64,000 nt of DNA. Origin: Candidatus Woesearchaeota archaeon. GTDB taxonomy: Archaea; Nanobdellota; Nanobdellia; Woesearchaeales; DSVV01. Below the pieces are notes generated by a model. The model had not been told where the DNA came from. It searched no databases and saw only the letters and a program-made list of their open reading frames with translations. Position numbers and translations under genes: made by a program. The stretch is from the NCBI GenBank assembly GCA_016219865.1, contig JACRKF010000033.1, positions 1,960 to 65,959 on the forward strand, given 5' to 3'. This document shows positions 3,266 through 36,627 of the stretch, one piece after another (the stretch's first letter is position 1; every line of letters begins with the position of its first letter).

Positions 3266-4671
<1,406 letters not shown>

Positions 4672-5724: not shown

Positions 5725-7674
5725 ATGTATGACGCAAGATTATTGTTGGAAAATTGCAATATTGTAAATAAGGACGGAACATTCTCTCAAAAAAACATTT
5801 TTATTGAGGATGGAAAGATTGCAAAAATAGAAAGCAGCGCTTTTGTCAATACTGTCTCTTACAAGACAATTGATTGTGCTGGAAAATTAGTATTGCCTGG
5901 ATTAATTGATTGTCATGTGCATTTTCGTGATCCAGGTTTTCCAGAGAAAGAAGATTTCTTGTCAGGAAGTTCTGCAGCAGCAGCAGGAGGAGTAACTTCA
6001 ATTTTAGAGATGCCAAATACAGCTCCAGCAACATTCACAAGAGCATTGCTTGGGCAAAAGAGACATATTGCAAGCCATAAAAGTCTAGTTAATTATGGAT
6101 TCTATATTGGAGCTGGAAATGATAATCTTGAAGAATTAAATATGGCAGAGAACATTGCTGGAATTAAAATATACATGAATCTTACAACAGGACAATTATT
6201 GATTGATGATGATGCTCATTTAAAAAAGATATTCTCCCTAAATAATAAATTATTTGCAGTGCATGCTGAAGGAGAAACATTTGCAAAAGCATTATCTATG
6301 TTTCACGAAAATAACGAAAATAACTCCTCTAGACTATACTTATGCCATGCTTCTTTGCAATCAGAGATAGAAATAATTAGAAAAGAGAAACTAACTGGGA
6401 AAAAAGTCTATGCTGAAGTCTGTCCTCATCATTTATTGTTCACAAAAGAAAATGATTTAGAAAGATTAAACGGCTATGCTATAATGAAGCCAGCATTAGC
6501 AACAGCAACTGACAGAAACTCTTTATGGGCGGCAATTAACGATGGTGCAATTGATATGCTTGCAACAGATCATGCGCCGCATACACGAGCAGAAAAGAAT
6601 AATAATAAACCTGCATTTGGTGTAATTGGTGTTGAATTATTATTGTCATTGGCATTGACATGGTATCATGAAGGAAGATTAACTCTTAGAAGAATAATGG
6701 AATTATGCTGCGAAAATCCTGCAAGGATTTTCGGAATAAAAAACAAAGGTTTTTTAGCAGAAGGCTATGATGCGGATATTGTTGTTATTGATTTAGACGC
6801 TGAGAAGATTGTTAATGATGAATTATTATTTTCAAAAGCAAAAGGTTCTCCGTACAATGGCATGAAACTTAAAGGATTGCCTGTGATAACAATCGTCAAT
6901 GGAAATATTGTTTTTGCTGATGGTATGATTAATGATTCTTATAGGGGAAAAGAATTAATGTTTGGACAGGGTGAAACTATGGCGCAAGATGATTTAGAAA
7001 GTAATGTTAGTGAATCTGTTGCTGTTGGAGAGGACATTACTGAGAAGGTTGCAGAAATTTTATTGGACACAAAAGCAGTGATTGTTAATGCAGAAAAACC
7101 ATATAAATATGCATCAGGAATATTAAGTCCAATTTATTGTGATAATAGGATTGTATTATCCTATCCAGACAAACGAAAGATGGTAGTTGAAAGTTTTTTA
7201 GCATTAATTGAACGAGAAGATATTCAGTATGATGTTATAGCTGGAGTTGCAACAGCTGGAATTCCTTGGGCAGCAATGATTGCAAACAAACTTGACAAGC
7301 CATTAATCTATGTTCGAACAGAGAAGAAAGAGCATGGCAAGCAGAATGCAATTGAAGGAAACCTTGAGATTGGCCAACGCGTGCTGGTTGTTGAAGATTT
7401 AATTTCTACAGGTGGAAGCAGTTTGCAAGCAGTGCAGCATATCAGAAATGCACAAGGGATTGTTGACCATTGTGTTGCAGTCATGAATTATGAATTTGAA
7501 GAAAGCAGAAATAGATTTAATGAGAATGGCTGTACTTTATTGACATTGACTAACTTTTCAGTGCTTAGTAAAATTGTATTAGATAAGAAATATATAGATC
7601 AAGCTGCTTATGATAAAGTAAAAGAGTGGAATTTAATGCCAAAAGAATGGGGGAAAAAGCATGGGTTTGAATAA
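5725..7674 (+). CDS. pyrC: Fused dihydroorotase (N-terminus) / orotate phosphoribosyltransferase (C-terminus)
   Basis: N-terminal DCHVHFRDPG and ATDHAPH (DHOase metal ligands). C-terminal VLVVEDLISTGGS PRPP-binding motif of PyrE. The two halves are joined by an acidic linker to give a single 649-aa ORF. Confidence 0.85.
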   Translation: MYDARLLLENCNIVNKDGTFSQKNIFIEDGKIAKIESSAFVNTVSYKTIDCAGKLVLPGLIDCHVHFRDPGFPEKEDFLSGSSAAAAGGVTSILEMPNTAPATFTRALLGQKRHIASHKSLVNYGFYIGAGNDNLEELNMAENIAGIKIYMNLTTGQLLIDDDAHLKKIFSLNNKLFAVHAEGETFAKALSMFHENNENNSSRLYLCHASLQSEIEIIRKEKLTGKKVYAEVCPHHLLFTKENDLERLNGYAIMKPALATATDRNSLWAAINDGAIDMLATDHAPHTRAEKNNNKPAFGVIGVELLLSLALTWYHEGRLTLRRIMELCCENPARIFGIKNKGFLAEGYDADIVVIDLDAEKIVNDELLFSKAKGSPYNGMKLKGLPVITIVNGNIVFADGMINDSYRGKELMFGQGETMAQDDLESNVSESVAVGEDITEKVAEILLDTKAVIVNAEKPYKYASGILSPIYCDNRIVLSYPDKRKMVVESFLALIEREDIQYDVIAGVATAGIPWAAMIANKLDKPLIYVRTEKKEHGKQNAIEGNLEIGQRVLVVEDLISTGGSSLQAVQHIRNAQGIVDHCVAVMNYEFEESRNRFNENGCTLLTLTNFSVLSKIVLDKKYIDQAAYDKVKEWNLMPKEWGKKHGFE

Positions 7675-8880: not shown

Positions 8881-11800
8881 TCATCCCCTGCCATACACCA
8901 AACTGTAACTATTCTTGCTAGGTCTTATCTCATATCCTTCTCCAGGTTCAAAGCAGGCAAAGTTTCCTGACCATAGTCCTGTTGTTGCGCTATATTGCGC
9001 ATATTCATATCTTGCAGATGTTGTGTTGTAATGATAAATTCTATCACCTGTTGCAGGATTTGCAGGAGAAACGAAAATTGCTGAGAAATTGCATTGTTGT
9101 ATTGCAGAGTAATAACCAAACATATTTATTTCAGCAGAGGTTGTATTCCCCGCAGCATTTGTTGAAGCTGCAATCGAAGTTGTATAATTGTTTAATGGAA
9201 CTTCTCCAACTAATGTGATATTATATGCAGTTGCAACAGGAGAAAATGCATAGGATCTTCCATATTCAAATAAAGTAAAATCGCCAAGCCATCCAGAACC
9301 TGTAAAAAACTGTGAAAGCATTGCTGTTTTTGAAGTTGTATTATAAGAATAAATAATATCATTCTCTGAAGCAGAAGTTAAATTAGAAATATTAAGATCA
9401 TTGACAGTAATAGGCAATGAAATAAGATTCAATTGTATTCCCGCAGTTGGATTGCCAGCTGCTGCTTTAATTAATACATTGAATTTTGCAGCAGTAATAT
9501 TTGTTAGATTATAATTTGTGCCATTTGCTGCAGCAACACGATAAAATCTCTTGTCAACATCTCTTGCATCATTATCTATGTAATATAATTGTGCTGCTGC
9601 GCTTATTGTTGCATTTGCTGTCGGAAGCGCTGCAGCAGAGAGATTGAGGACATAGGATGCATTCTCTGAAAAAAATAATTTATACTGAGAAGCATCTTTA
9701 GCTGAATCCCAAGATATATTAATTGAGTTATTTGCAAGCTTTTTGATTGTAAGATTGCCAGGCATAAATGGTTTGACATCTGTTGAATTAAATATTGTTG
9801 TTGTATTTGCTGCTGTTTGATTGATAAAATTAGTTTCATTGCATATAATATTGTAATTATATGTTGCAGCTCCAACAAATGTTCTGTTGTATTCAAACAA
9901 TGCTTTTGTTGCATTATACATCATATTCGCAGTCACATCTGTAAACTGGATGCTGCAATTTGCAGTAGTAATTGGTGTTTTTGAAGTCACATTTGTGTAA
10001 TTTGCAAAAAAGTTTGCTATTTGATTTTCATATGTTGCGCCAAGACGATAAGGCGCAGCATCTTGCGTTGAATCCCAAGTAATTAATGAAGCATTTTCTC
10101 GTGCAGTAATATTAGCTAATCCTATTGTATAAAAAGTAAGATTTGTTGCAGTTGCTGTAATTATTGTGCAGCCATCCGCGGCAGAATTGCAAACAGAACC
10201 ATTTTTCATAGGCACTGGATTTGCATAGCCGGTATTGTATAATGAAAATGTTATGTTGCTATTTAATGTGCTGTGCAGATGTGAATTATTAAACAGGATA
10301 TTATTCCTGCTGATGTTTGCATTTTTATCAAAATCTTGAAATGCAGCAACCGCAAAATCATTAAATATTATTTTCCCATTCGATGTATTCTCAAGAATAA
10401 AGTAGGATGTATTATATAATGATGGAATAACAAGTGGATTTGATGTTATTCCATTAAATGTGTTTATTTGTGGTGAAGCATTTAATCCAGCAGAGATTAC
10501 TAATGAAAATGGCTGTGAACCTTGAGCAATATTATACGCTGAGACATTAACTTGATAACTTCCAGTTTGTGTATTGTTAGTATTAATAATAACCTGCTCA
10601 ACTGTATTTCTATCATCTGAGGACGCATTAAATGGAAATAAAAAGTTATTGCCAAGAAATTGCGTTCCATTTGGTGCTGTTGCAATCAGATTAAGATCAT
10701 TCACTAATGAAATTGCTGCATTTGCTGTTCCTTTGTAATCTGTCCAGACTAAAGTTATTTTTATTGGAGTTGATGCATTAACAACTGTAAAATTGTAAGT
10801 TGAAGATTGACCTGTTGTCAATTCAGTGCTATTATCAATATACACAAGATATCTTGATCCTGATGGAATTAATGTATTAGTCATATTTACTCTGCCCCAT
10901 CCGCTTGTATTGCTTGGAAATCCATAGCTTAGCTCTTGGGCGCCATTAATTAGTGTTGCTTTAAGCAATGCTCCAGAAACATTATTGTAGAATTTGTTGA
11001 GCATGAAATCCTGACGCAACAACACAAGCATGCCTGCTGCAGAAGGTGTTGCCATGCTTGTGCCTGAGCAAGTAGAATAATTGCCATTTGAAGAAAATGC
11101 GGAATTGCAAGATGGACTTCCTGAGCTGATTACAGTTGATTTTGTTGAAACAACATTTGTGCCAATTACAACAACATCTGGTTTTGTCCTGTTATCAGCA
11201 GCTGGTCCAAGACTGCTTGTCGATGAGATTAAAGCAGGATTTCCTGAACTTCTGCTGCTTTGAAGGTTGCCAACAGAAACTGCATTTTTCGCAGTTGCTG
11301 GATAAAATACTGTGTTTGCGCCAGAACCGCCAGAATTTCCTGCTGCAACAATTAATAATGCATCTTTTCTGTTCCACATAAAATCATCAACAGTTACAGC
11401 TAGTGATTCATACGCATTAGTATCGCCGCCATAACTATTGCTATGCACTCTAGCGCCATCTAAATATTGATTATGAAGAATTGTTTTATATGTTGATGTT
11501 GTTCCTAAATAAATTGATCGTGAACCATCATCATCACCTGCTGCATAGAATGAGATATTGGCAGCATATGCCATTCCTTTAAATTGACCAGCAGATAATG
11601 TGCCATTTCCAGCAGCAGATCCTGTTACGTGCGTGCCATGGCCATTTAAATCATTTGGTGAAGAACAACTAGCGCCGCTTAATGCGCAAACTGTATTGTT
11701 AGTTTTAATATTGACAATACGATTATCAAAATCCAGCAAGATATCATTTAATACAGAAAGATTATCAACACCAGTATCTAAACCAGTATCTAGTATGCCA

Positions 11801-12600
11801 ATCACTTGGTTTTTTCCATTAAGATTAAGAAAATTCCATACAGGAACAACCTCATGAGTTTGCGCAACCAAATCATTCAATACATGCACTGGTGAAGGAG
11901 CATCAATAATCTGAACTTCATCAACAGCAGAAATTTGTTGAATATTCTCTTGCGCAGTTTTTATTCGTATTACTTCATTATCAGCAGCTATTATCTCTAA
12001 ACCATTAACCTCTTTTAATTTTTCTGCAACTAATGCTGAATTTCCATCTTCATAAAGATAAAGATCAAGTGTAACTTTATTATTTTTGTCTGGAACAATT
12101 GTTGCAATTGTTTCTGTGTTCAATTTATACTCTGGGTTGTAGTCAATTATTGCTTTTACAAATTCAAATGTTTGTATTTTGTTTAAGTTTACTGTTGGTA
12201 TTTTCACAATAAATGAATTCTGGGGAATATATGAATATATTTTAACATCATATGTTTCCAATGCCTTTTTCCATGAATCTCTAACAGGACCGGCAAATTG
12301 AAGAACATAAAAAGCTTCGCTTTTATAAAAGACTTCCTCGCTGCGCTCGTCGTCTTTTATTTCATTAATAATTAGCGGTTGCTGTTTTTGTTGTTCAGTA
12401 ATTGTCTGCGATTTAAAATAAATATTAGCATCAGCTTTTTTATATTCTTCTGGATGATATTCAGTAAGTGCTGTTTTAACAGCATTATATTGCTTTATTT
12501 CTTGTTTATACGCAAAAGAGAATAAACTAATTATAGTTATAAGTAATAGAACTGCAACTATTGCTGCTAACCCAACTTTTTTCATAATAAAATCATTCAT
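8881..12600 (-). CDS. Secreted subtilisin-like serine protease (peptidase S8) with a very long Asn/Thr/Ser-rich C-terminal stalk
   Basis: N-terminal signal anchor. Catalytic triad motifs VIGILDTGLD (Asp), HGTHVTGSAAG (His), GTSMATPSAAGMLVLL (Ser) and oxyanion AAGNSGG. The ~700 C-terminal residues carry dozens of N-x-S/T sequons. Confidence 0.85.
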   Translation of the reverse strand: MNDFIMKKVGLAAIVAVLLLITIISLFSFAYKQEIKQYNAVKTALTEYHPEEYKKADANIYFKSQTITEQQKQQPLIINEIKDDERSEEVFYKSEAFYVLQFAGPVRDSWKKALETYDVKIYSYIPQNSFIVKIPTVNLNKIQTFEFVKAIIDYNPEYKLNTETIATIVPDKNNKVTLDLYLYEDGNSALVAEKLKEVNGLEIIAADNEVIRIKTAQENIQQISAVDEVQIIDAPSPVHVLNDLVAQTHEVVPVWNFLNLNGKNQVIGILDTGLDTGVDNLSVLNDILLDFDNRIVNIKTNNTVCALSGASCSSPNDLNGHGTHVTGSAAGNGTLSAGQFKGMAYAANISFYAAGDDDGSRSIYLGTTSTYKTILHNQYLDGARVHSNSYGGDTNAYESLAVTVDDFMWNRKDALLIVAAGNSGGSGANTVFYPATAKNAVSVGNLQSSRSSGNPALISSTSSLGPAADNRTKPDVVVIGTNVVSTKSTVISSGSPSCNSAFSSNGNYSTCSGTSMATPSAAGMLVLLRQDFMLNKFYNNVSGALLKATLINGAQELSYGFPSNTSGWGRVNMTNTLIPSGSRYLVYIDNSTELTTGQSSTYNFTVVNASTPIKITLVWTDYKGTANAAISLVNDLNLIATAPNGTQFLGNNFLFPFNASSDDRNTVEQVIINTNNTQTGSYQVNVSAYNIAQGSQPFSLVISAGLNASPQINTFNGITSNPLVIPSLYNTSYFILENTSNGKIIFNDFAVAAFQDFDKNANISRNNILFNNSHLHSTLNSNITFSLYNTGYANPVPMKNGSVCNSAADGCTIITATATNLTFYTIGLANITARENASLITWDSTQDAAPYRLGATYENQIANFFANYTNVTSKTPITTANCSIQFTDVTANMMYNATKALFEYNRTFVGAATYNYNIICNETNFINQTAANTTTIFNSTDVKPFMPGNLTIKKLANNSINISWDSAKDASQYKLFFSENASYVLNLSAAALPTANATISAAAQLYYIDNDARDVDKRFYRVAAANGTNYNLTNITAAKFNVLIKAAAGNPTAGIQLNLISLPITVNDLNISNLTSASENDIIYSYNTTSKTAMLSQFFTGSGWLGDFTLFEYGRSYAFSPVATAYNITLVGEVPLNNYTTSIAASTNAAGNTTSAEINMFGYYSAIQQCNFSAIFVSPANPATGDRIYHYNTTSARYEYAQYSATTGLWSGNFACFEPGEGYEIRPSKNSYSLVYGRG

Positions 12601-12663
12601 TGCATGAATGATTTTATATATTTTCCGTTATGAATCAGCTTTTTTCAAAATATCTAGTATTTG

Positions 12664-12694
12664 CTGAGTGAGCAAAGCGAACTCGCAAATACTA
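12664..12694 (+). promoter_or_regulatory. 31-nt element CTGAGTGA-N7-GAACTCG-N5-ACTA (copy A), 55 nt upstream of the HTH gene
   Basis: Shares 19 fixed positions at identical spacing with copy B. Embedded in the 9-bp inverted repeat AGTATTTGC...GCAAATACT. Confidence 0.35.
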
Positions 12695-12748
12695 AAGAAA
12701 TACTTCCATGTGTAAACATTTATATACTAGTGGAAGCTAAAACTTCCA

Positions 12749-13273
12749 ATGGAAGCAAAACTGTCCATATTGCAGCCTTTTTTCAAAAAGTCAGGGGAAG
12801 CATTCCATATCAGAGAAGTTGCTAAACTTACTGGTATAAACCATACAACTGTCAGAAAATATCTGCAGGAGATGGTTAAAGAGAATATTCTGGCTATAAA
12901 AGAAGATAAACTCTATGATATGTATATAGCATCACATTCTCTTGCATTTCATAATATACAGCTATATTATATATTAGAAAGTGTGCGAAAATCCAAGTTT
13001 CTTGCAGATATTGAAAAAAACGATAAAGATGCTGCAGTTGTCTTATTAAATTCTTTTAAATCTGATGATTCAATAGAACTATGTGTTATCTATCAGAAGA
13101 ATAATGAATATTCAGTGAAAGAATTAGAAAAATATTTTGGCAAGAAAATAGTTATGCACTATCATAATGCAAAGAAATTTCATAGTTATCTAAAGAATGA
13201 TGCATTGTTATTTCAACACATCTTAAATGGCATTGTTATCAAAGGCAAGATTACAGTTGCTGATTTTTTATGA
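12749..13273 (+). CDS. Winged-helix (HTH) domain protein, putative transcriptional regulator
   Basis: N-terminal HIREVAKLTGINHTTVRKYLQEMV helix-turn-helix. It is the first gene of a co-directional six-gene island. Its start codon sits in the palindrome ACTTCCAATGGAAGC. Confidence 0.45.
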   Translation: MEAKLSILQPFFKKSGEAFHIREVAKLTGINHTTVRKYLQEMVKENILAIKEDKLYDMYIASHSLAFHNIQLYYILESVRKSKFLADIEKNDKDAAVVLLNSFKSDDSIELCVIYQKNNEYSVKELEKYFGKKIVMHYHNAKKFHSYLKNDALLFQHILNGIVIKGKITVADFL

Positions 13274-13284
13274 ACGGAGTGAAT
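13271..13284 (+). promoter_or_regulatory. 14-nt element TGAACGGAGTGAAT flanked by TTTTTTA / AAAAAAA, 7 nt upstream of the ATG at 13291
   Basis: Read directly; overlaps the stop codon of the preceding gene. Confidence 0.4.
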
Positions 13285-13290
13285 AAAAAA

Positions 13291-14442
13291 ATGGATAAGA
13301 AAGCAATCAAATTAACAAGCGAGGCATTGATTGAAGCTGTATTGATTACAATTGTAATTATAGCATTTGCTTTCTACATTAGTTCATTAAGAGAAGACAC
13401 ATTAATTGAAAAGACAGCTATTATTAGAGAATTATCAATGCTTGCAAATACAGTGCAGGCAAGCCCTCAAGATGCGCTTGTAATATATAATAAAAACAAT
13501 CTCAACAAATATCATTTTTCATTTAAAGAGAATTATGTGCAGATTAAACAGCAGGATTATGCAACAGTATTATATCCTTATTACACAGATATGATGCTTT
13601 CAATGCTGCTGCTGGATATAGAAAAAAAAGATCAACTTGTATTCTCTAGTTTCAAAGATAGTTTTATAATTTCTCCTGAAACAGTTGTTGGCTTTTCTTC
13701 GCAAAGAGGAGATAGTTTCAATCCAGCTGCTGCATCAGGTGGCATAGTTATTCAAAACAATCAGCAAAAAGATCCGCAATTAGCAGCAAGCTTTGCTAAT
13801 TGTCCGCTTATAAAATCAACAGTTGCATTGCAGACAATTGTCTTAGATTCAGGTAAAGGAGATTATATTGCAATGCCTGATGAGACCCAAGAAGTATTTG
13901 TAAAAGATTTTGGCGTGCAGAATAAAGCTCTTGGTACAAGCGAGCATGAACTTACTATGAAAGCTGTTATTTTATTAGAGACAGCATTAAGATTAAAAGT
14001 TAAGAACACACTCCTCAAAAAAACAAGAACGCAGAATGAAGATGAAAGTTTTTCTTATTCTGAGAGGTTGCAAAGATTTGATGCAGATGACAATCTTGTA
14101 ATAAGCATCCGTATGTATCAGGCGCAAGAGACTGAGAATAAGATTACCTTATATATATTAGCAGGAAAAAATGAATTGCAGAATCAAAAGATTGCATGTT
14201 TATTGATGAACGAATTGCAAGAAAAGTTATCAGGATTAACGCATAAAATTGAGATACGTTATCTTGCAGAAACAGATGATAGTTATCCATTATTAGAAAA
14301 GAACAGCAAAGAAAATGATAATTTAGCTGTTTTATTAGAGCTAGGCAATATTAACAATAAAGATAATGCTTTGTACAGCCAATTAGATGCTGCTGTTGAT
14401 GCGATAGCTGCAGCAGTTGCTGCATATAACAATGATAGATAA
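13291..14442 (+). CDS. Hypothetical membrane-anchored protein (KKA-type N-terminus)
   Basis: Start reassigned from 13270 to the ATG at 13291, because 13271–13284 is the recurrent 14-nt upstream element. N-terminus MDKKAIKLTSEALIEAVLITIVIIAF (basic + TM). Confidence 0.5.
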   Translation: MDKKAIKLTSEALIEAVLITIVIIAFAFYISSLREDTLIEKTAIIRELSMLANTVQASPQDALVIYNKNNLNKYHFSFKENYVQIKQQDYATVLYPYYTDMMLSMLLLDIEKKDQLVFSSFKDSFIISPETVVGFSSQRGDSFNPAAASGGIVIQNNQQKDPQLAASFANCPLIKSTVALQTIVLDSGKGDYIAMPDETQEVFVKDFGVQNKALGTSEHELTMKAVILLETALRLKVKNTLLKKTRTQNEDESFSYSERLQRFDADDNLVISIRMYQAQETENKITLYILAGKNELQNQKIACLLMNELQEKLSGLTHKIEIRYLAETDDSYPLLEKNSKENDNLAVLLELGNINNKDNALYSQLDAAVDAIAAAVAAYNNDR

Positions 14443-14462
14443 GAATAATTAAAGATGAAAAG

Positions 14463-15089
14463 ATGAATAAAAGACAAATGAACCAAAAAATGAATATTTT
14501 TCATGAAAGAAAAGATAGAAAAAAAGCTTTTGCCTATTTTCAGATTATTTTTGCATTTTATAGGATATTTGTATTGATGTTGGTTGTCTTATCTATTGTT
14601 ATGATCACAAAATTATTTATTAAAGTAACATTTGACACGCAAAAAGCAGAGATGGAACTATTTAAAGAACAATTATTATACTCTAAAGATGGTATTTCGT
14701 TGTACGACAGGGAAACCCAGCTATTATCTCCTGGTGTTATTGATTATAATCTTTTAAAGAATAAAGCATTATTTGAAAGCAAATTATTGCAGGGATTTTA
14801 CTTTAAAGACAAACCTCTTATAGCAGCAAAGCTTGAATTTTCTCTTCCATCTAATGCTGATGAAACTAGTACGGATTATGAAGAATTTATTCCAATCTAT
14901 TATCATGAAGATTATTTTAAACAATTATCAGTGCTTGCAAATACAAAGTTTCATGGAGCAGGTGGAGCAAAGATGATCCAAAGAGAAACTCCTGTATTAA
15001 TTAAGAAAATAGTTGTAGAGAATAACATTGCAGTTGAAAAATATATTCCAGCAGATTTAACAATCACAATTGTCAGCTCAAATAGTTAA
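14463..15089 (+). CDS. Hypothetical membrane-anchored protein (KKA-type N-terminus)
   Basis: ...RKKAFAYFQIIFAFYRIFVLMLVVL TM after a basic stretch. Co-directional with its neighbours. Confidence 0.45.
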   Translation: MNKRQMNQKMNIFHERKDRKKAFAYFQIIFAFYRIFVLMLVVLSIVMITKLFIKVTFDTQKAEMELFKEQLLYSKDGISLYDRETQLLSPGVIDYNLLKNKALFESKLLQGFYFKDKPLIAAKLEFSLPSNADETSTDYEEFIPIYYHEDYFKQLSVLANTKFHGAGGAKMIQRETPVLIKKIVVENNIAVEKYIPADLTITIVSSNS

Positions 15090-15114
15090 TTAGAAAGATA
15101 ACAATAAAGAATAG

Positions 15115-15681
15115 ATGATACTTATGAAAAGGAAAAATAAAGAAATATTCTTTGCAAAAAGAATTTTTTGCAAAAAAGCTGCAACACCATCGCAGATATT
15201 AATAGACTTTTGGGCTGCGCTAATCATTGTATTGATTCTGGCAACATTCTTTTTTATTTTATATGTCTCTCAAGGCAATATGGGTGTTGTAATCAAAGCG
15301 CAAGCAGCTGAGTTCGAGACTAATGATGAATTGCTTTATCTTTTGCAGTCTCCTGTCGTTATTGGCAATAAATCAATGAGCTTTTCTGAAGCAATTGCAG
15401 TTTCAGTGCATAAAGATGATTTTGTTGAACTTGAAAAAGCATTTGATCAAATAGGAGTATCAATTAGATTCAATAACTGTATTGACATTACTCTTGAATA
15501 TTCTGGCAAGAAAAAATCAATTCCTGCTGTGAATAATTGTGAAAGATATGCTGAATATGAACACAACACTGAAAAGATCTACATAAGTAAAGCAGAACTG
15601 CCATCTTTAGATGGTGCAATTATCAGTGTTGCTTATTCAATCAGTAAGATAATCCCGGAATATAGATATGGAAATGAATAA
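15115..15681 (+). CDS. Hypothetical membrane-anchored protein (KKA-type N-terminus)
   Basis: ...CKKAATPSQILIDFWAALIIVLILATFFF; 188 aa. Confidence 0.45.
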   Translation: MILMKRKNKEIFFAKRIFCKKAATPSQILIDFWAALIIVLILATFFFILYVSQGNMGVVIKAQAAEFETNDELLYLLQSPVVIGNKSMSFSEAIAVSVHKDDFVELEKAFDQIGVSIRFNNCIDITLEYSGKKKSIPAVNNCERYAEYEHNTEKIYISKAELPSLDGAIISVAYSISKIIPEYRYGNE

Positions 15682-15683
15682 AC

Positions 15684-17864
15684 ATGAAAAAAATAAATAA
15701 AAAATCACAATTGTTTATGATATTGTTAGTTTTTGTTACATTGACGACTGTCATTTCTGTATTCTTAGTGCTTTCAGAGAAAAGAGCAGATGTTAAAAAT
15801 TATTTAGGAGAAGAAAGCATGAATCTTATTAGTGGATATCAAGAAGAGCAGAAATTACTGCATGCAATTCAATTGCAGGCAAGATTTGCATATTATCAAT
15901 CTGTTTACGATCTTGCATTAGCTGGAGGTGCATCAACTGAAGGAGCTGCTGCAAATAACTGCGGTAAATATCGTGGATTTGTAAATTATTACAATGATCC
16001 TGAGTTTCAGCAATGCTTGCCTTTGGATCCAGAGAAAGAATTAATTCTGCTGATGAACAAAGAGATGAAATTTACTGAAACAGGAATTAGTAACAGCGAA
16101 GTTACTTCTGTTTACAGCGCTGAGGTAAAAGATAATTCAGTTATTGGCAAAGCAAATGGCTCAATTGCATATACTTATGACACTGCAAATAAAGTATTAA
16201 ATCTTGGTTCAATTGAAATCAAACAATTATCTCCAGGAGAATACGCGCAATTGCATAATTATGGAACTGCTCCAGGCACTCAAGGAAATAGTGGCGTAAA
16301 AGAATATCCAGTATGCGATAAGACAGAAGATGTAATCATTGATCTTTCTCAAGGCAAAGAAAAGAAACTTGAAGAAATTGGCTTAGGAAAAATATGGGTG
16401 CCAGCGCAAGCATTATGTGGGGGAGAATTTCCAGTTTTTATAATGCTTCATGGTCATGATGCTAATCCTGCGCAGTATTATGTTGGAGAAAGTTCAAAGT
16501 CAAGAATTGATAGCAGTATTAAACAATTAATAGCTGATAAAAAAGTATATCCTGTAATCTTAGCTGCGCCGATTGGACGTGTAAATAAGATTAATGGTGA
16601 TTTAGTTGATCCATGGCCTGCTGACCAGTTTGATATTGCTGATTATATTGCAAAGATTAAAACTGTGTTGCAGCAGCAGAATAATAAACTAACTGCTGGA
16701 AAAGTTGGAATCATTGGGCATAGCGCAGCAAATTGTTATGCAGGTGGTTTAAGAACTGCTGTCAGCAAATATGATTTTTATTTTGTCGGTTCAGCTGATG
16801 GAACCTGCGGTTCAAAAGATGGCGCTGTTGGCAGCAATAATTATGCAAAAACAATCTCTCAAAGAATCAGCAATAAAGATGCAATTTATGTTTTGATGCA
16901 CAGAAATAGTGATTCAGGAGATAAATCATCTGAAACATTTATGGCGGAAAACAGTATTGATGACTCAGCAGATGCAATTGCAAAAGAGAATTATGTTTCT
17001 GTTGTAAAGAAAAATGATAAAGAATATTATCGATATTTGTTGGATCCGCAAAAATATGGACATATGGCAGTTCCAAAATTGATGACAATGGAAGTTTTGC
17101 AGCGATTCTTCACATTAGAAAAAGTTGGAGGATTTGCTCCTTATGCTGCCATATCTCAAGCAGCGCCTAATGGTTGTAAAAGAACAATATTTAATAGAGA
17201 TAGTGAATCAATTGGAACAGTTAATTGTGGTGCATTAAAAAATGCTGTAAGTTTTGCCGCCGAGCGCGAATATTATAAATCTGATCATGATTCTCAGAAA
17301 AGATATGCAACTGTTGAATTAGTTAATTTCATTGAGGATATTGGTTGTGTCTTAACTGCAAAATATGGTTCACAAGGGAAAATTGCTGTAGGACAAACAA
17401 GTTATGAATATGGCGGGAAATTATATCTTCATGGAGACAGCGGAAATGCGCATTCTTCGCATCAAAGTGGAAGAGATGCGGATATTGGATTGTTCTTCAG
17501 AAATGAGAAACAAGAATTGATAAGTAAACAAACTGCAATGGTTGATACAAAGACAAATATTGTAGATTCGCGTTTTGACTTGGACGCTAATTGGTTATTT
17601 GTAAAAGAGTTTGTTAAACATGATCTGGCAGATATCATTATTATTCATGGGGCATTAGAAGATGCGCTTATTGCTTATGCTGAACAACATAATGAGGACA
17701 AACAATTGATTGAAAAAGCAAAACAAATAATGGTTGGTGGATATGGGGAGTTAGGGTATGATCACAGACACCATTATCATATCAGGATTAAATGTCCGCA
17801 TGGAGATAATTTATGTGAAAAGAAATACAATAAATGTGATAATTATATTGCTCAGGCGAAATAA
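15684..17864 (+). CDS. Membrane-anchored multidomain protein with a C-terminal MepA-like (peptidase M74 / LAS-family) murein DD-endopeptidase domain and a central putative alpha/beta-hydrolase-like region
   Basis: C-terminus HGDSGNAHSSHQSGRDADIGLFF and DHRHHYHIRIKCPHGDNLCEKK closely match the MepA zinc-ligand blocks (GGHASHQTGLDVDI; HRAHMHVRLRCP..LEC). The central part has FIMLHGHD and IIGHSAAN, which is esterase-like. N-terminus is MKKINKKSQ + TM. Confidence 0.55.
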   Translation: MKKINKKSQLFMILLVFVTLTTVISVFLVLSEKRADVKNYLGEESMNLISGYQEEQKLLHAIQLQARFAYYQSVYDLALAGGASTEGAAANNCGKYRGFVNYYNDPEFQQCLPLDPEKELILLMNKEMKFTETGISNSEVTSVYSAEVKDNSVIGKANGSIAYTYDTANKVLNLGSIEIKQLSPGEYAQLHNYGTAPGTQGNSGVKEYPVCDKTEDVIIDLSQGKEKKLEEIGLGKIWVPAQALCGGEFPVFIMLHGHDANPAQYYVGESSKSRIDSSIKQLIADKKVYPVILAAPIGRVNKINGDLVDPWPADQFDIADYIAKIKTVLQQQNNKLTAGKVGIIGHSAANCYAGGLRTAVSKYDFYFVGSADGTCGSKDGAVGSNNYAKTISQRISNKDAIYVLMHRNSDSGDKSSETFMAENSIDDSADAIAKENYVSVVKKNDKEYYRYLLDPQKYGHMAVPKLMTMEVLQRFFTLEKVGGFAPYAAISQAAPNGCKRTIFNRDSESIGTVNCGALKNAVSFAAEREYYKSDHDSQKRYATVELVNFIEDIGCVLTAKYGSQGKIAVGQTSYEYGGKLYLHGDSGNAHSSHQSGRDADIGLFFRNEKQELISKQTAMVDTKTNIVDSRFDLDANWLFVKEFVKHDLADIIIIHGALEDALIAYAEQHNEDKQLIEKAKQIMVGGYGELGYDHRHHYHIRIKCPHGDNLCEKKYNKCDNYIAQAK

Positions 17865-17866
17865 AA

Positions 17867-18961
17867 ATGAAAAATAATCATCAAATAAAAAAAATAAGCA
17901 GGCATATGGTCTTAGTGTCAGCCATACTTTTATTTTCCATAGTTATATTTTTATCTCCTGTTGTTTCCGCAGCGCCGCAGTTATTGATCAGCATAGATAA
18001 TGAGAATAATCTTGAAGATTTCCAAGTGATTGCAGACAATGACTATTATGGCGGGAAATATTATCCTTTGCTTACTGAAGAATATGGGGAAGAAATACTG
18101 ATATCGCCTGAGAAGTTTCATTATAGAGTTATACTAGACAATATAGAAATTTCAAAACTAAATGAAAGATTTGCATTAGGATTCAGTCCTAAAACTGCAA
18201 CTATGGAAATCTTTGATGATAAGATATTTGATAATAATAAAGCAATCATCACTAAACAACTTTCATTCTGCAACAACAACAATATTTGTGAACCTTGTGA
18301 AGATTCTGAGTGCAATCTCATGGAATCTTCTTTGACATGCAATGATTGTAAGTCTGGCAGCGCAGATTTTATTTGTGATTTAGTTTATGATGGAATTTGT
18401 GATCCTGATTGCGAGAATAAAGACAAAGATTGCAGTAGTTGTAAAGAAAAAGCAAACGAAGAAGCAAATAATTGTTATGCTTATGCTGAAGAGACTGAAT
18501 GTCTTGAAGAATATAGCGGAGAAACTTGTTTCTTTGGCAAGAGCTGCGCTGAAGGTGATGGCATAGCAATAAAAAATACTTTGTGCTGCCCAAACAGTTA
18601 TTGCATAACTTCTTTTTTTTCAATGAATGAAAAAAAAGAAATTGAAAAGATAAAAGAAAAACAAGATGAAGAAAAAGAGATAAAATTCATGAACCAAGTT
18701 GCAACAAACCAACAGCAATCATTTACAATTTATTTAGTATTTATCATAATATTAATAATTACTATAATATTATTATCTATTTATTTCATTAGAAAAATGT
18801 ATAGGTCAAAGATGCTTGTTATAGAAATCCAGCGATTAAAGAACAGATACAGTTATGCCGAGATTAAAACTTATTTAGAAAAACAAGGATATAAAAAAGA
18901 AGATATTGATTTAGCAATACAGCAGCATTATTTGTATGATAAGAATGTTAAAAATCACTAA
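17867..18961 (+). CDS. Cys-rich surface protein with an N-terminal signal/TM and a C-terminal TM anchor plus cytoplasmic tail
   Basis: N-terminal hydrophobic segment. Dense Cys module CNDCKSGSADFICDLVYDGICDPDCENKDKDCSSC...CCPNSYC. C-terminal TM IYLVFIIILIITIILLSIYFI followed by a basic tail. Confidence 0.5.
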   Translation: MKNNHQIKKISRHMVLVSAILLFSIVIFLSPVVSAAPQLLISIDNENNLEDFQVIADNDYYGGKYYPLLTEEYGEEILISPEKFHYRVILDNIEISKLNERFALGFSPKTATMEIFDDKIFDNNKAIITKQLSFCNNNNICEPCEDSECNLMESSLTCNDCKSGSADFICDLVYDGICDPDCENKDKDCSSCKEKANEEANNCYAYAEETECLEEYSGETCFFGKSCAEGDGIAIKNTLCCPNSYCITSFFSMNEKKEIEKIKEKQDEEKEIKFMNQVATNQQQSFTIYLVFIIILIITIILLSIYFIRKMYRSKMLVIEIQRLKNRYSYAEIKTYLEKQGYKKEDIDLAIQQHYLYDKNVKNH

Positions 18962-19000
18962 TCGTGCTTTTTAACATTTCTTTGAAAAAGGATTGAAAAC

Positions 19001-22000
19001 ATGAACTATGGTTTCGGAGCAAAAACAAGAAAAGTATTGCAGTTTTATTTAGTTTACGCTTTATTCTTATTGTTGAGTGCTGCTTTTGTCACAGCAGACA
19101 ATATTAATTTTGCTATAATTACAGATACAAATGTTGGCATTGGGAGCATTGTATTAGCAGAACAAACTGATGCAGTTGTTAATTCAATTATTCATTCTCC
19201 GCAAAATATTGATTTTGTTATTCATCTTGGCAATATGGTAGCAGGAAGTTCTGCTGCAACAGCTGATGATGCTGAAAAGATGTGGAATGAATACAATCAG
19301 AAAGTTATAAAACAATTGCAGGATAAAAATATAGGACTGCTTTTAATTGCTAATAAACAAGATAAAGCAAATGCTGCATTAGAAAGTAATTATATCAATT
19401 TATTTAACTCTGCAACTCACGATTTTGTCTCTTCAGCAGCTGCAAAAGATAATTATGCATTTGTATACAAGAACAATCTTTTTATTGTTTTGCAGTATGA
19501 CAAAAATATTGACAAAAGCTGGTTAAAAGAACAGTTAGAAAATAATTATCAATCTGTTGACCATGTGTTTGTATTTTATCCAAACGAATTTGTTGCAATT
19601 GCAAAAGAAAAAACAACCTCCTTAGTCTGTAATAATTGCAATGACTTATTTTCTGCGCTTGATGCTTACAGCAATAAATTTGGCAACAAGGTAACATTAT
19701 TTACAGCATCATCTCAAGTTTATTACAAAGGAAATTACAAAGGATATGATATTGTCTCAGTTGGCGCAATTGACGAACCGCATACAATAATTGGAACTAA
19801 TGAACGGCAAAAAGCTGTGTATGCAGTTGTTAAAATAAATGATAAGGATACTGTTATTTATGGTGTTGAAGAGCAATTTGATCATTGGTTTTACGAATGC
19901 AGAAACCTGCCATTGATCCAGCCAGCAGGCTATGACAAATTTAAAGGAATGATTGCAGGATGCCAGCAGATAACAGGAGATAAAAAAACAAATGATATTA
20001 TCCAGTCACCCTGTATTATTCCTCCGCAATTTGAAGGATATGATCAATTTGCAAAAGCAAGAGGATTGATCGTTGAAAGTTTCAATGAAAAACATCCAGA
20101 ATATGATTCAATTATATTAGAAGCATCGCAAAGGTTTAACATGCCATTTGAATTGATTAAAGCAATTGTCATGGAAGAATCAGGTGGAAATCCTTTTCCA
20201 TCAAAACAATCTCTTGGTGGAACAACCTGCAATGAAAATGGATGTTTATGCAATCAACAAGGATTTTGTGGATTGATGGGAACAGGATTAAATTATGTTT
20301 GCTTAACTCCTTCTGAATGCAATAAACAAGCATTTATGGACGGAAACCCTCGTGACCAAATCTTTGCAGGAACCTCAATCCTCCGCAGAATAATAGACAA
20401 AAAACAATGCAAACTTGATAATAAGAATCTGCTTGATGATGTTAATAATCCTCAATATATCATGCATTTATTTGGCTGCTATGGAAAAGGTTCTGCTGAT
20501 AATAAAGAATATTGTGAAAGAGAAAATAAACCATGTGGTTATCCTGTTTTCCTCCGCAGAGCAATGCAAAAAAGTGCTAAACCTCTTGAAAAGATTACTC
20601 CTGCGGATATTGCTGCTGTAACTACAGATGCAAACGCAATAGTTCATAGTTACATAAAATATATTAAATTAAATCTCTGTAAAAATGGAGTCATCAATGA
20701 CCAAATAGCGCATCCAATTATTCAAAGTACTGCAGCGCAAAGCCAATCTGCATTAGCTAAAGTTGGAATTGCTCAAGGTGTTTCAACAGTCTATTATCTA
20801 ACACCTAACTTCAGAGTAAACATGGATAATGCATTCACAGATTATAAAACAATTAGAGAAGCAGCAACGCAATTAGTAACTGAAGTTAATGACTGCAGAA
20901 GTCGTGGCAATACTGTTGAGAATTGTTTTGCTATTAATATTAATAATCAAAAGTATAAAACGCTTGGAATTACAGTTGATAATCAATTATGCAAAGAAAG
21001 TCAGCTGGATAAATTCATCTATGATTCAATTGAGAATATGAAAACATGTTCAAGATTATCATTAAAAAAATGTCAGATGATTATCCCGCAGCAATATCCT
21101 GGAGAGGCAAAGCTTGATGAGAATGCAATTGCATTTGTTTTCTCATCTGTTGATGGCAAAACAATTCTTATTGAGGCATCTGTCAACAATATATTGCATA
21201 CTGCGGATAAAATAACTGGAAGCTTGGCATTATTTGAAGATTTTATAGCGCAGCCGGAGTTTAAAGATATGAAGAATGCAACAATTCTGCTGAAATATGA
21301 TAAATATCAATCTAAACACAATATATTATCATTTAATGATAATCATAATTTTGTTTCAAAAGACAAAATTATTCCTTTTGTTTTCAATCAGGATAATAAA
21401 TTAACTTTCTTTAGTGATAAGTTAGCGCAGCCATATTTTTCTTTTGCTGAAGCGCAGCAGCAGGAAATAGATGACATGCAAAAACTAAAAAAAGGTTTTA
21501 AGTTGTGCTATTTAAGCAAGAATACATTGTATGCAAAAGGTATGTTTGACACTTCTCCTGAAGATATTGCTTATTATGAGAATAATTTGCGTTATCCAAC
21601 AAAATTAAGAGCTCTTGTCTATAGATTTGCATTATTATTTGATGTTTCTCAGGCAATTCCTCATACAGCTATTGCAGCAGCTGACTTGCAGAAAGCAGAG
21701 AAAACTGTGCTTGTAAAGTTTGATAAACCAACTACTCCTGTTAAATATTATACATTATTTTTTTCTAACGAAAAAAATATATTGGAAAAACCTGCAAATG
21801 AGCTTAAAGATAAAGAAAATGTCCAGAAGATTATTCTTGATCCTAGCGCGGCAAAAACAGTAAGCGTCGCAGATTATTCTTTGCTTGGAGATGAAATAGT
21901 TATTGGCAAACTTTATTATAACATTCAGGAGAATATGTATTTCTTAGCAGTTGCAGTTGATAATGAATTAAAGCAATATTATTTTACTATTGCTGCAATG

Positions 22001-22480
22001 AGTGTTAATAATAAAGAACCGAATAATATTGATGCTGATCAAAAGCTAAATGTCATTGAAGGATTTTCAATTGATGATTTGCCTCCAGCATCGCCGGAAA
22101 TTGTTATTATTGAAGGTGCTTCTATTTCAGCAGCAGATATAAATCAAGAAGAGATCGAAAGCAATGTTGCATTAGCTGCGCCTCTTCAAGGAAGCATCGC
22201 AGTTGCTTGGGATAGTGTTGCAGATAATAGTAATCTTAATTATCTTCTTGCTGATTTAGATGGATATTTTGTTGTAATGCATGAGGATAAAGTTAATACT
22301 TCATTAAAGCTTACTAAAGATAATTGCAATACTGCAAATAATTGTCAATTTGTTTCTGCAGTATTGCCAGACAACAAAGATAGATTTGAAACAGTTTTTG
22401 CTGGATTAGATGATGCAAATAATTATATGGTTGTTGTTTATGCTGTTGATACTTCTGGAAATTATTTAGAAATTAAATAA
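19001..22480 (+). CDS. Large secreted protein (1159 aa) with a lytic-transglycosylase (SLT/lysozyme-like) domain
   Basis: N-terminal signal peptide. Residues ~370–470 read EASQRFNMPFELIKAIVMEESGGNP...GFCGLMGTG...DGNPRDQIFAGTSILRRI, which matches the family-1 LT motifs (catalytic E-S, G-L-M-[QG], downstream NP...I..G..IL) around a Cys-rich insertion. Confidence 0.5.
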   Translation: MNYGFGAKTRKVLQFYLVYALFLLLSAAFVTADNINFAIITDTNVGIGSIVLAEQTDAVVNSIIHSPQNIDFVIHLGNMVAGSSAATADDAEKMWNEYNQKVIKQLQDKNIGLLLIANKQDKANAALESNYINLFNSATHDFVSSAAAKDNYAFVYKNNLFIVLQYDKNIDKSWLKEQLENNYQSVDHVFVFYPNEFVAIAKEKTTSLVCNNCNDLFSALDAYSNKFGNKVTLFTASSQVYYKGNYKGYDIVSVGAIDEPHTIIGTNERQKAVYAVVKINDKDTVIYGVEEQFDHWFYECRNLPLIQPAGYDKFKGMIAGCQQITGDKKTNDIIQSPCIIPPQFEGYDQFAKARGLIVESFNEKHPEYDSIILEASQRFNMPFELIKAIVMEESGGNPFPSKQSLGGTTCNENGCLCNQQGFCGLMGTGLNYVCLTPSECNKQAFMDGNPRDQIFAGTSILRRIIDKKQCKLDNKNLLDDVNNPQYIMHLFGCYGKGSADNKEYCERENKPCGYPVFLRRAMQKSAKPLEKITPADIAAVTTDANAIVHSYIKYIKLNLCKNGVINDQIAHPIIQSTAAQSQSALAKVGIAQGVSTVYYLTPNFRVNMDNAFTDYKTIREAATQLVTEVNDCRSRGNTVENCFAININNQKYKTLGITVDNQLCKESQLDKFIYDSIENMKTCSRLSLKKCQMIIPQQYPGEAKLDENAIAFVFSSVDGKTILIEASVNNILHTADKITGSLALFEDFIAQPEFKDMKNATILLKYDKYQSKHNILSFNDNHNFVSKDKIIPFVFNQDNKLTFFSDKLAQPYFSFAEAQQQEIDDMQKLKKGFKLCYLSKNTLYAKGMFDTSPEDIAYYENNLRYPTKLRALVYRFALLFDVSQAIPHTAIAAADLQKAEKTVLVKFDKPTTPVKYYTLFFSNEKNILEKPANELKDKENVQKIILDPSAAKTVSVADYSLLGDEIVIGKLYYNIQENMYFLAVAVDNELKQYYFTIAAMSVNNKEPNNIDADQKLNVIEGFSIDDLPPASPEIVIIEGASISAADINQEEIESNVALAAPLQGSIAVAWDSVADNSNLNYLLADLDGYFVVMHEDKVNTSLKLTKDNCNTANNCQFVSAVLPDNKDRFETVFAGLDDANNYMVVVYAVDTSGNYLEIK

Positions 22481-35054: not shown

Positions 35055-35310
35055 TTAGATCACAATCTTGCTCTTGTCCAGATTCATCTTTGTACTTGCC
35101 ATTATCTGCTAATCCATCACCGTCGCTATCATCAGGAGAATTTGCTGGAACTAAGCAATCTTGCTGCGAAGTTGTTTTTTCCTTTATATTTGTCAGTGAT
35201 TTCATAAAATCCTTAACAGAACCTGAAGAAATCATAATCAGTAAGAATCCAAACACTAATGAAACAATCATTATTACAAGCCAAAATGGCATTTCTGCTT
35301 TTTTATCCAT
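35044..35310 (-). CDS. Small pilin-like protein with a C-terminal Asp-rich calcium-binding-like motif
   Basis: Real start taken as MDKKAEMPFWLVIMIVSLVF (track start 35358 is a TTG). C-terminus DDSDGDGLADNGKYKDESGQEQDCD resembles a TSP3-type DxDxDG repeat. Confidence 0.45.
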   Translation of the reverse strand: MDKKAEMPFWLVIMIVSLVFGFLLIMISSGSVKDFMKSLTNIKEKTTSQQDCLVPANSPDDSDGDGLADNGKYKDESGQEQDCDLNAP

Positions 35311-35365
35311 AAAAAACATCCTCCCTTTAGTAGTCATTACTCCTATGTTAAAAAACAATAAAAAA

Positions 35366-35379
35366 TGAACGAAGTGAAT
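35366..35379 (+). promoter_or_regulatory. 14-nt element TGAACGAAGTGAAT inside the 9-bp inverted repeat CAATAAAAA...TTTTTATTG, with no downstream plus-strand gene
   Basis: 27-mer nearly identical to the 5701–5727 copy. Lies inverted ~56 nt upstream of the minus-strand gene starting at 35310. Confidence 0.35.
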
Positions 35380-35391
35380 TTTTATTGTTTT

Positions 35392-35856: not shown

Positions 35857-35901
35857 TTGTTTATTCTCATAGCTGCATTTTCTTTTTCAGCAATTACTGA
35901 T

Positions 35902-36462: not shown

Positions 36463-36481
36463 ATCCGCTTTTTTTTTATTT

Positions 36482-36613: not shown

Positions 36614-36627
36614 AATAAAAAATCTCC

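Follow-up and report, generated by a model that had tools for sequence, protein, structure and literature searches.

Giant extracellular proteins with an SLT domain have been noted repeatedly in Woesearchaeota and Pacearchaeota, always as single genes (PMC8204110, PMC9723730, PMC10936187), and later papers cite Rinke (2013) and Castelle (2015) as the first to have noted them. They appear as the 'murein-like lytic transglycosylase' giants of family fam00969 in Castelle et al. (2021, PMC8204110) and as GH23 proteins in Vigneron et al. (2022, PMC9723730), and an attack on bacterial walls has been proposed for them in both studies. Peptidoglycan hydrolases are found in 5% of archaeal genomes, are prominent in Nanoarchaeota, and have been shown experimentally to kill bacteria (Strock et al., 2025, PMC12352652). 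That DPANN archaea have bacteria, in addition to archaea, as partners is still a hypothesis, and the case for it has hitherto rested on one recurring annotation, that of the giant SLT protein. Here we analyse a stretch of 64,000 nucleotides (nt; "the window") of contig JACRKF010000033.1, from a metagenome-assembled genome (MAG) of Candidatus Woesearchaeota, in which such a giant gene is now placed in a conserved operon (12749-22480) that combines a constant scaffold with exchangeable, murein-specific modules.

The open reading frames (ORFs) of the cluster have exactly the coordinates and lengths given in an earlier note made from the sequence alone. Seven plus-strand genes, encoding a helix-turn-helix (HTH) regulator and the proteins that we call P3, P4, P5, P6, P7 and P8, in this order, follow each other with intergenic gaps of -4 to 39 nt, the stop codon of the HTH gene overlapping the start of P3 by 4 nt, and form a tight operon in which all six non-regulator proteins begin with a transmembrane (TM) helix or a signal peptide (Table 1). 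We followed this operon through three close lineages (the window and the lineages labelled L002 and L004), two distant ones reached via relatives of the SLT domain (L007 and L009) and about ten further metagenomic lineages, which were scanned with P7 and annotated by local hidden Markov models (HMMs). The same gene order is found in a second Woesearchaeon (GCA_018303075.1) at 68-73% identity and, with P7 and P8 joined into a single ORF, in a lineage from groundwater at 35-50% identity; GCA_046484055.1 is another genome of an operon-bearing lineage. In at least 13 lineages the order is HTH, P3-type, P4, P5, P6-type, P7 and giant gene, followed by RPA (often also YdjM). The homology of the scaffold is detectable gene by gene, for the HTH protein, the N-terminal modules of P3 and P6, P4, P5, P7 and the middle domain of P8.

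As judged from domain assignments, the scaffold is constant and the catalytic slots hold differing murein-specific domains from lineage to lineage. In the P3 slot we found Amidase_3, Amidase_3 with M15_4, or Amidase_2, and in the P6 slot an esterase-like domain with M74 (the form of the window), Amidase_3 with M74, PGA_cap with M74, M74 alone, NlpC/P60 with YkuD, or a PF11860 muramidase. The giant slot is occupied by SLT alone, by Metallophos, NAGPA and SLT, by Amidase_3, NAGPA, GH73 glucosaminidase, NlpC/P60 and an SLT-like domain, by Metallophos, GDSL and M15_4, by Metallophos and M15_4, by a 3D domain, by a CE4 polysaccharide deacetylase, by a domain resembling β-lactamases and penicillin-binding proteins (PBPs) together with C39_2, or by a GH25 lysozyme. 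Nearly all of these families target glycan containing N-acetylmuramic acid (MurNAc), the MurNAc-L-Ala bond or peptide bonds of D-amino acids, and the combination of Metallophos and NAGPA would suit phosphodiester-linked wall polymers. A constant scaffold with exchangeable murein-specific cassettes is the strongest argument at hand that the operon is one functional unit, and it likewise argues for bacterial murein, not pseudomurein, as the target. Taking this together with domain homologies, the conservation and loss of catalytic residues, operon structure and export and anchor signals, we consider it likely that the operon encodes a membrane-anchored, outward-facing set of enzymes degrading bacterial murein at the Woesearchaeotal cell surface. 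A dedicated exported set directed at bacterial-type murein had been suggested in the earlier note, and the comparative data strengthen that proposal.

Table 1. Features of the operon and of the divergent S8 gene (positions are those of the window).
Feature	Position (nt)	Strand	Extent	Remark
S8 subtilase	8881..12600	-	1239 aa	
S8/operon control region	12601..12748			between the divergent genes
HTH regulator gene	12749..13273	+	174 aa	winged-helix; operon gene 1
P3	13270..14442	+	390 aa	
P3 Amidase_3-like domain	13912-14421	+	residues ~215-384	degenerate
P4	14463..15089	+	208 aa	
P5	15115..15681	+	188 aa	
P6	15684..17864	+	726 aa	
P6 esterase-like core	16389-16913	+	residues ~236-410	
P6 Peptidase_M74 domain	17208-17828	+	residues 509-715	
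P7	17867..18961	+	364 aa	
P8	19001..22480	+	1159 aa	
P8 Metallophos-like domain	19103-19855	+	residues 35-285	degenerate
P8 GH23/SLT domain	20093-20500	+	residues ~365-500	
P8 predicted catalytic Glu-Ser	20177-20182	+	E393-S394	
P8 family-specific middle domain	20723-21160	+	residues ~575-720	common to family members

P6 is composed of a KKS motif with a TM helix, an N-terminal module (residues 1-125), the esterase-like core and the M74 domain. The peptidase block, already read as MepA-like from the sequence, is recognised by PF03411 (Peptidase_M74) at 64.8 bits (cut-off 25, E 1.2e-17) over 196 of the 240 profile positions, and a search of the PDB retrieves MepA (1tzp/1u10) with E 5.7e-5, the segments HSSHQSGRDAD and HRHHYH falling on the MepA motifs. 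Both LAS motifs, H-x-x-H-x(4)-D-x-D and H-x-x-H-x-H, are intact (H590, H593, D598, D600, H694, H697 and H699), and their residues are invariant in an alignment of three orthologues, of which the other two are 68% and 50% identical to P6; by the published structure of MepA, we take these seven residues to be the ligands. Against the NCBIfam equivalog PRK09429, P6 scores 69.8 bits where the cut-off is 272, and on its sequence we class it as a member of the M74 family, not as an equivalog or orthologue of MepA. Its name at NCBI is already 'penicillin-insensitive murein endopeptidase'.

The excised middle region of P6 returned no family match in a Pfam search. Conserved in all orthologues are HG 256-257, GHS347AA, D372 and H406, and an AlphaFold2 model built from three sequences (predicted local distance difference test, pLDDT, 35.6 overall and 50-73 in the esterase-like core) gave, at this low confidence, Foldseek matches for the middle region to α/β-hydrolase esterases alone, among them CE1/feruloyl esterases with E-values down to 2.9e-5. 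P6 probably carries an esterase domain besides M74. Its N-terminal module is common to proteins of L007 and L009 that bear other catalytic domains, and a scan of GTDB genomes with P6, for which the patterns were taken from the clade-specific esterase domain, identified one species representative.

P8 runs from a Sec signal peptide through the Metallophos-like domain, the SLT domain and the middle domain to a β-rich, FN3-like C-terminal region with a weak fn3 match. The SLT domain is undetected in full-length P8 by Pfam, NCBIfam and phmmer against the PDB, and we consider the assignment right because an orthologue and relatives pass the threshold, not from the window sequence alone. The corresponding region of the 35%-identical L004 orthologue scores 23.7 bits, above the SLT cut-off, as do the relatives P0011 (22.0 bits), L013 (25.1 bits), P0013 (33.7 bits) and L023 (62 bits), and residues 352-717 of P8 are homologous to SLT-family relatives with E-values of 1e-19 to 3e-28. 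HMMER, run exhaustively over 1.84 billion representatives, yielded only 17 relatives of the SLT region, mostly giant DPANN proteins; among the six with a named source, five come from DPANN or archaeal MAGs, and the sixth carries the label of a KSB1 bacterium.

In a 15-sequence alignment of this family, the Glu of the Glu-Ser motif is invariant, and conserved blocks follow: GYCGLMQ after a Cys-rich insert (C.CN..GYCGLMQ plus further conserved Cys), DQIFxG, and (A/G)YN(A/G)G. Family 1 lytic transglycosylases have three signature motifs, to which the GLMQ, DQIFxG and AYNxG blocks correspond. When the profile of these 15 sequences was searched against the PDB, 16 of the 18 matches were GH23 enzymes, aligned on the catalytic Glu, with MltC as the best (E 0.0017), followed by Slt35, EmtA and goose-type lysozymes; a profile of three sequences gave nothing useful against the same database. 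In line with this, the top 40 Foldseek matches in the PDB to a poor AlphaFold2 model of the region (pLDDT 47.8, from a two-sequence alignment) were all MltF, MltE and MltC, at E-values of 0.045 or more and TM-scores of about 0.3. We regard the SLT domain of P8, on the evidence of its sequence family, as a true, divergent GH23 domain belonging to a subfamily so far found mainly in DPANN archaea. One member of this subfamily, P0007 (1633 aa, with Metallophos, NAGPA, GH73 and C39_2 domains), bears the NCBI label 'candidate division KSB1 bacterium'; it is either a mis-binned contig or a genuine bacterial relative, which bears on the origin of the SLT family.

Two further domains of the operon are homologous to enzymes and have lost metal ligands. 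The excised N-terminal and C-terminal parts of P8 gave no match above threshold in Pfam, to Metallophos or any other family, and residues 35-285 are homologous to the genuine Metallophos domains of P0007, P0008 and P0010. Where D-x-H, GD, GNH[DE], H and GHxH are expected, P8 has DTN, GN, NKQD, F/Y and SSSQ, and the metal ligands are nearly all gone in all three close orthologues, marking this domain, by sequence, as a pseudo-enzyme. In P3, a KKA motif and TM helix are followed by a conserved juxtamembrane module and a C-terminal region that matches Pfam Amidase_3 with 23 bits (E 9e-5), under the cut-off of 27. A local P3 HMM did not match the real Amidase_3 domains of family members, and a P3 profile gave nothing useful against the PDB, so that the link rests on positional orthologues in L007, L009 and L012, which are clear Amidase_3 proteins, and on a MAFFT alignment. 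In this alignment, the zinc histidines are replaced by Lys and Arg, with both Glu kept, in all three close orthologues, and the P3-type protein of L007 (g2) retains both histidines and both Glu. Because both zinc-binding histidines are replaced, P3 is probably an Amidase_3 homologue that has become an inactive pseudo-amidase.

P4 and P5 are small bitopic membrane proteins, P4 with RKKA before its TM helix and a conserved N-terminus, P5 with CKKA before its own, and neither has a match in Pfam or NCBIfam. Local HMMs located them at the same operon position in 10 (P4) and 7 (P5) metagenome loci. P7 combines a Sec signal peptide with an ectodomain rich in Cys and Asp, a TM helix near the C-terminus and a short tail in the cytoplasm, and it matches no Pfam family, including when the ectodomain is excised. 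The ectodomain is characterised by the motif FCNxNxxCExCE...CDLxxDxxCDPDCxxxDxDC, whose invariant Cys pattern is kept in five lineages. In three lineages P7 is fused in frame to the giant enzyme (L004, 12307-16593, a single ORF of 1428 aa; L026, 9944-13780; L062, 9974-12547), which argues that the two work together physically; P7 is probably the membrane partner or anchor of P8. There are at least 219 metagenomic matches to the CDLxxDxxCDPDC... motif, and the proteins that carry it are often stand-alone, of 240-290 aa, and away from the operon (loci L027-L089). Tandem duplicates in which P7-type genes take turns with P6N-type genes occur in L022 and L023, and one 406-kb contig has four identical P7-motif copies about 109 kb apart (L028-L032), which looks like a large repeat or an assembly artefact.

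In all three close lineages, P3 to P6 carry [K/R][K/R][G/A/S] directly before the hydrophobic helix, and at most equivalent positions L007 and L009 have RRG, KRG or KKG, with about 10 polar residues intervening before the helix in g4. The earlier note had listed four small KKA-anchored proteins; P3, P4 and P5 do share KKA as part of a conserved motif, but the fourth is P6 itself, with KKS. These motifs raise the possibility that P3-P6 have class III signals cut after KK[G/A/S] and assemble into a short pilus, or a fibre of the bindosome type, on which the hydrolase domains are displayed, a model that refines our explanation of the operon and can hold together with it. Six more consecutive genes of the window (32838-38322) share this N-terminal style, and the bindosome-like display of non-pilin proteins has a precedent (10.64898/2026.04.22.720090). 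However, by the positive-inside rule a signal anchor of any kind would be preceded by a Lys-rich stretch, no Pfam pilin or Class_IIIsignal match was obtained for ten N-termini even at E<=10, and most sites lie outside the stricter FlaFind-type pattern. Profile-profile comparison with hhalign detects no relatedness among P3N, P4, P5 and P6N, and a prepilin peptidase, an assembly ATPase or a platform gene was not identified in the window. We put the pilin-like scaffold forward tentatively, as an idea that we would sooner doubt than assume. The six genes at 32838-38322, on the minus strand, encode proteins of 738, 104, 154, 201, 302 and 255 aa with the same [K/R]K[A/G] and helix (HKKA before EMMTLETVAEAVLV in one example, KKA before IKLTSEALIEAVLI in P3); several are rich in Cys, all are without a Pfam family, and the cluster may be a pilin-like or adhesion locus.

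The HTH protein, which has positional homologues in L002, L004 and L007, has only weak Pfam matches, to the HTH of Mnd1 (26 bits), HTH_IclR and HTH_24. In the region separating it from the S8 gene, TTTATATA boxes lie at 12613-12620 and 12719-12726, and the TATA element of this control region is invariant in three lineages. As the second box ends 22 nt before the ATG of the HTH gene, the sequence suggests a leaderless mRNA. Between the divergent TATA boxes lies a perfect palindrome (12655-12694), TAGTATTTGC-N20-GCAAATACTA, which is kept with co-varying arms in L002 (TGTATTTTTC-N20-GAAAAATACA, 3632-3671) and L004 (TTATTATTTCC-N20-GGAAATAATAA, 6512-6553), so that across the three lineages the arms measure 10-12 nt and the spacer 18-20 nt, with compensatory changes in both arms. 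This element is probably an operator, and its position in a common control region suggests that the S8 protease is co-regulated with the operon in this clade.

The divergent 1239-aa S8 subtilase named in the earlier note is readily recognised, with 139 bits (E 2.6e-40) against PF00082 over a catalytic domain at residues 262-569 (nt 10894-11817) and a complete triad (DTG271, HGTH321 and GTSMA513). In the distant lineages L007 and L009, no S8 gene precedes the operon, and in L012 S8 is found elsewhere. The protease is a neighbour in this clade only, not a conserved member of the operon.

The proteins of the operon are also set apart by their content of N-glycosylation sequons. P3-P8 together have 4 where about 23 are expected, and P8 has 2 against 10.4 expected, the giant protein of L007 0 against 12.0 and that of L009 0 against 7.0; indeed, operon proteins are sequon-depleted in every lineage tested, giant proteins having 0-2 sequons against 7-12 expected. 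Cytoplasmic controls have counts at expectation, and 26 other proteins of the window have 55 against 62.6 expected. Such depletion fits exported proteins selected to stay unglycosylated, for which passage through a murein mesh or interference with catalysis may be the reason. The adjacent S8 protease, also exported, is biased in the opposite direction, with 52 sequons against 24.5 expected (z +6.6). Three of the proteins of the 32838-38322 cluster, those of 738, 302 and 255 aa, have no sequon at all (6.8 being expected for the 738-aa protein). Further along, 38575-45823 encodes an NAD-dependent epimerase, a GT2 glycosyltransferase, a GT4 and a PMT_2-type glycosyltransferase, a GFO/IDH/MocA oxidoreductase and a second GT2, probably, from these assignments, for surface or N-glycan synthesis, which fits a heavy glycosylation of proteins such as S8.

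The DNA is archaeal. Pfam recognises eL19, eL32, eS4, uL30, uS5, uL6, SecY and SUI1 at 54-64 kb, the gene directly downstream of the operon encodes an RPA-like protein, genes for pyrimidine synthesis lie upstream of the cluster, and the GC content is 0.27-0.36 throughout the window, with no step at the cluster. The archaeal origin proposed in the earlier note is thereby borne out, and a bacterial or chimeric contig is ruled out because GC is even and archaeal markers flank the cluster on both sides. The description of the locus as an island was not borne out: we found no integrase or transposase genes at the cluster, composition is even, and the same order in the same place before RPA in at least 13 lineages speaks for a vertically inherited locus and rules out a genomic island or recent horizontal transfer. 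A viral or mobile origin was likewise rejected, with no phage matches for the M74 or SLT domains and no relatives of P7 in IMG/VR. Scans of the window for tRNAs and Rfam families returned nothing. The pyrimidine block upstream includes a 649-aa ORF for a fused dihydroorotase-orotate phosphoribosyltransferase (5725-7674), a fusion that was also called in L004 (Amidohydro_1 and Pribosyltran), and the window also encodes a lipoprotein-type solute-binding protein (Peripla_BP_6).

From these data we infer the substrates, the physical complex, the role of the esterase and the biological purpose of the operon. The GH23/SLT domain of P8, with E393 as general acid, would cut the bonds between MurNAc and N-acetylglucosamine, leaving 1,6-anhydro-MurNAc ends, and the M74 domain of P6, as a LAS zinc peptidase, would cut cross-links of the D-Ala-meso-diaminopimelic acid type. 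The esterase-like domain of P6 may strip O-acetyl groups that block lytic transglycosylases; the relative P0013 joins SLT to a GDSL esterase. The N-terminal pseudo-enzyme of P8 and the pseudo-amidase of P3 probably serve to bind polymers of the wall or to keep the assembly in one piece, the conserved scaffold would be formed by P4, P5, the N-terminal modules of P3 and P6, and P7, the latter paired with the giant enzyme, and the HTH protein may regulate the assembly. Acting jointly and on contact, the enzymes could open a local hole in the bacterial sacculus, through which an archaeon of very small size and poor biosynthetic capacity would reach the membrane of a bacterial host or prey, or muropeptides. 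In our view, the operon most likely serves to breach, on contact, the wall of a host or prey bacterium, with the scavenging of debris as the main alternative.

Several observations weigh against this interpretation. When excised, residues 335-575 of P8 score 15.8 bits (E 0.01) against PF01464, under the cut-off of 21.3, so that the SLT block claimed from the window sequence stands through its orthologue and family (22.0-62 bits) but not through the window copy itself. Among the Pfam comparisons that the earlier note had proposed, M74 and S8 came out above cut-off, whereas SLT did not, and the esterase-like region of P6 matched no family. The window copy of P8 also has GLMG and CYGKG where the family has GLMQ and AYNxG, and because of these replacements lytic-transglycosylase activity of P8 is plausible, not assured. 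With pLDDT values of about 48 for the SLT region and about 36 for P6, the fold evidence is weak; the superposition onto known structures that had been suggested failed on the quality of these models, and the fold searches are weak concordant evidence at most. Two murein-type domains of the window, Amidase_3 in P3 and Metallophos in P8, are degenerate. To our knowledge, a bacterial partner has been demonstrated for no Woesearchaeon, and a constant chromosomal position with vertical inheritance would equally suit a housekeeping function in the envelope.

If the surface enzymes instead digested free peptidoglycan debris (necromass) for amino sugars and amino acids, without specific contact with living bacteria, the reactions involved would not differ from those of an attack. 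DPANN archaea have been inferred to scavenge cell components (PMC9723730, PMC10936187), and the solute-binding protein mentioned above also speaks for this reading. However, all components are membrane-anchored and would thus reach only what lies against the cell; in the lineages examined, neither the operon nor its direct neighbourhood contains genes for a muropeptide permease, an anhydro-MurNAc kinase or NagA/NagB-type enzymes; and the fast turnover of catalytic cassettes resembles what adaptation to specific target walls would produce. We therefore consider scavenging unlikely as the primary purpose.

The constancy of the locus, fixed in the core genome, inherited vertically beside RPA and headed by its own regulator, would also be expected if the enzymes were autolysins that remodel a murein-like polymer of the archaeon itself for growth or division, and some relatives indeed bear domains of bacterial wall synthesis or maturation (YkuD L,D-transpeptidase, β-lactamase/PBP-like, CE4 deacetylase and PGA_cap). 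Yet murein is known in no archaeon, we found no report of murein synthesis by Woesearchaeota in the literature, and mur, mraY or PBP-type synthesis genes were not found in the 64-kb window. Housekeeping autolysins would, moreover, not be expected to swap bond specificity among close relatives or to decay to pseudo-enzymes, and we regard this explanation as very improbable.

Pseudomurein of methanogen hosts (Methanobacteriales, Methanopyrales), which the earlier note had offered as another target and which would agree with known DPANN hosts being archaea and with a proposed Woesearchaeota-methanogen syntrophy, is the least probable of all and can practically be set aside, as this polymer has N-acetyltalosaminuronic acid in β-1,3 linkage and amino acids of the L form alone, the operon's families (SLT, GH25, GH73, PF11860, Amidase_2/3, M74, M15 and YkuD) act on MurNAc β-1,4, MurNAc-L-Ala or D-amino-acid bonds, a domain of the pseudomurein endoisopeptidase type was not found in the operon family, and archaeal peptidoglycan hydrolases are mostly inactive on pseudomurein (Strock et al., PMC12352652).

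Returning to bacterial murein as the target, the components could be combined into a fixed murein-breaching machine, with a regulated and possibly pilin-like scaffold, a Cys-rich partner and swappable cassettes, free of N-glycans, that are tuned to the wall chemotype of the host or prey, although we judge this full combination speculative and would not be surprised to see parts of it fail. If true, archaeal episymbiosis with bacteria, or predation on them, would for the first time be tied to a defined molecular apparatus, which could also serve as a genomic marker of which DPANN archaea target bacteria and which wall types they attack. The hypothesis becomes testable, having defined domains, a regulator with a probable operator, and cassettes expected to track the wall chemistry of co-occurring bacteria; the operon is, in addition, a source of divergent peptidoglycan hydrolases, and P7 with the scaffold beside RPA is a marker locus for finding such archaea in metagenomes. 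In the searchable literature, which leaves subscription journals outside, we found no description of the operon, of the scaffold and P7 family or of archaeal M74, nor of cassette exchange, pseudo-enzyme decay or sequon depletion. The general idea is not new, and the domain combinations that the earlier note found unfamiliar are so only in part: giant SLT proteins had been published and P6 had been named by NCBI, but the operon and its cassette logic appear to be undescribed.

Among known systems, the arsenals of murein hydrolases of bacterial predators and episymbionts (the comparison with Vampirococcus has been made before; PMC9723730) and polymorphic effector loci resemble this operon in having several bond specificities and modules swapped on a constant anchor. 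They differ in that the producer here is an archaeon and that no secretion-system or immunity genes are present, nor would they be needed by a producer that has no murein. Woldo and Danwoldo of Halogranum salarium (PMC12352652) are likewise archaeal, exported, murein-specific enzymes read as anti-bacterial weapons; while these are single soluble, Tat-secreted proteins with a catalytic and a peptidoglycan-binding domain, the system described here is multi-gene and membrane-anchored, with Sec-type signals and a scaffold, and its proteins have no recognisable peptidoglycan-binding domains.

At the level of the individual enzymes, P6 shares with Escherichia coli MepA (MEROPS M74, LAS fold, 1TZP/1U10) the conserved His/Asp motifs for zinc binding and catalysis and the export of the domain, but its M74 forms the C-terminal part of a 726-aa anchored protein, after a scaffold module and an esterase-like domain, in an organism without murein. 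With family 1 transglycosylases (Slt70, MltC, MltE/EmtA and MltF), P8 shares the Glu-Ser motif, and its family also GLMQ and AYNxG, which read GLMG and CYGKG in P8 itself; its subfamily is distinct, with a Cys-rich insert and named members that are almost all DPANN. Closest are the published giant SLT proteins, which P8 matches in having more than 1000 aa, a signal peptide, an SLT/GH23 domain and a Woesearchaeotal host, and for which the published reading is likewise the binding or degradation of bacterial walls; compared by description only, all the traits given for fam00969 (large, extracellular, SLT-bearing, from Woesearchaeota and Pacearchaeota) fit P8. In contrast to these single genes, P8 is the last of seven genes in an operon with M74, a pseudo-amidase, a scaffold and a regulator, and its SLT domain is exchanged in some lineages for GH25, CE4, M15 or PBP-like domains.

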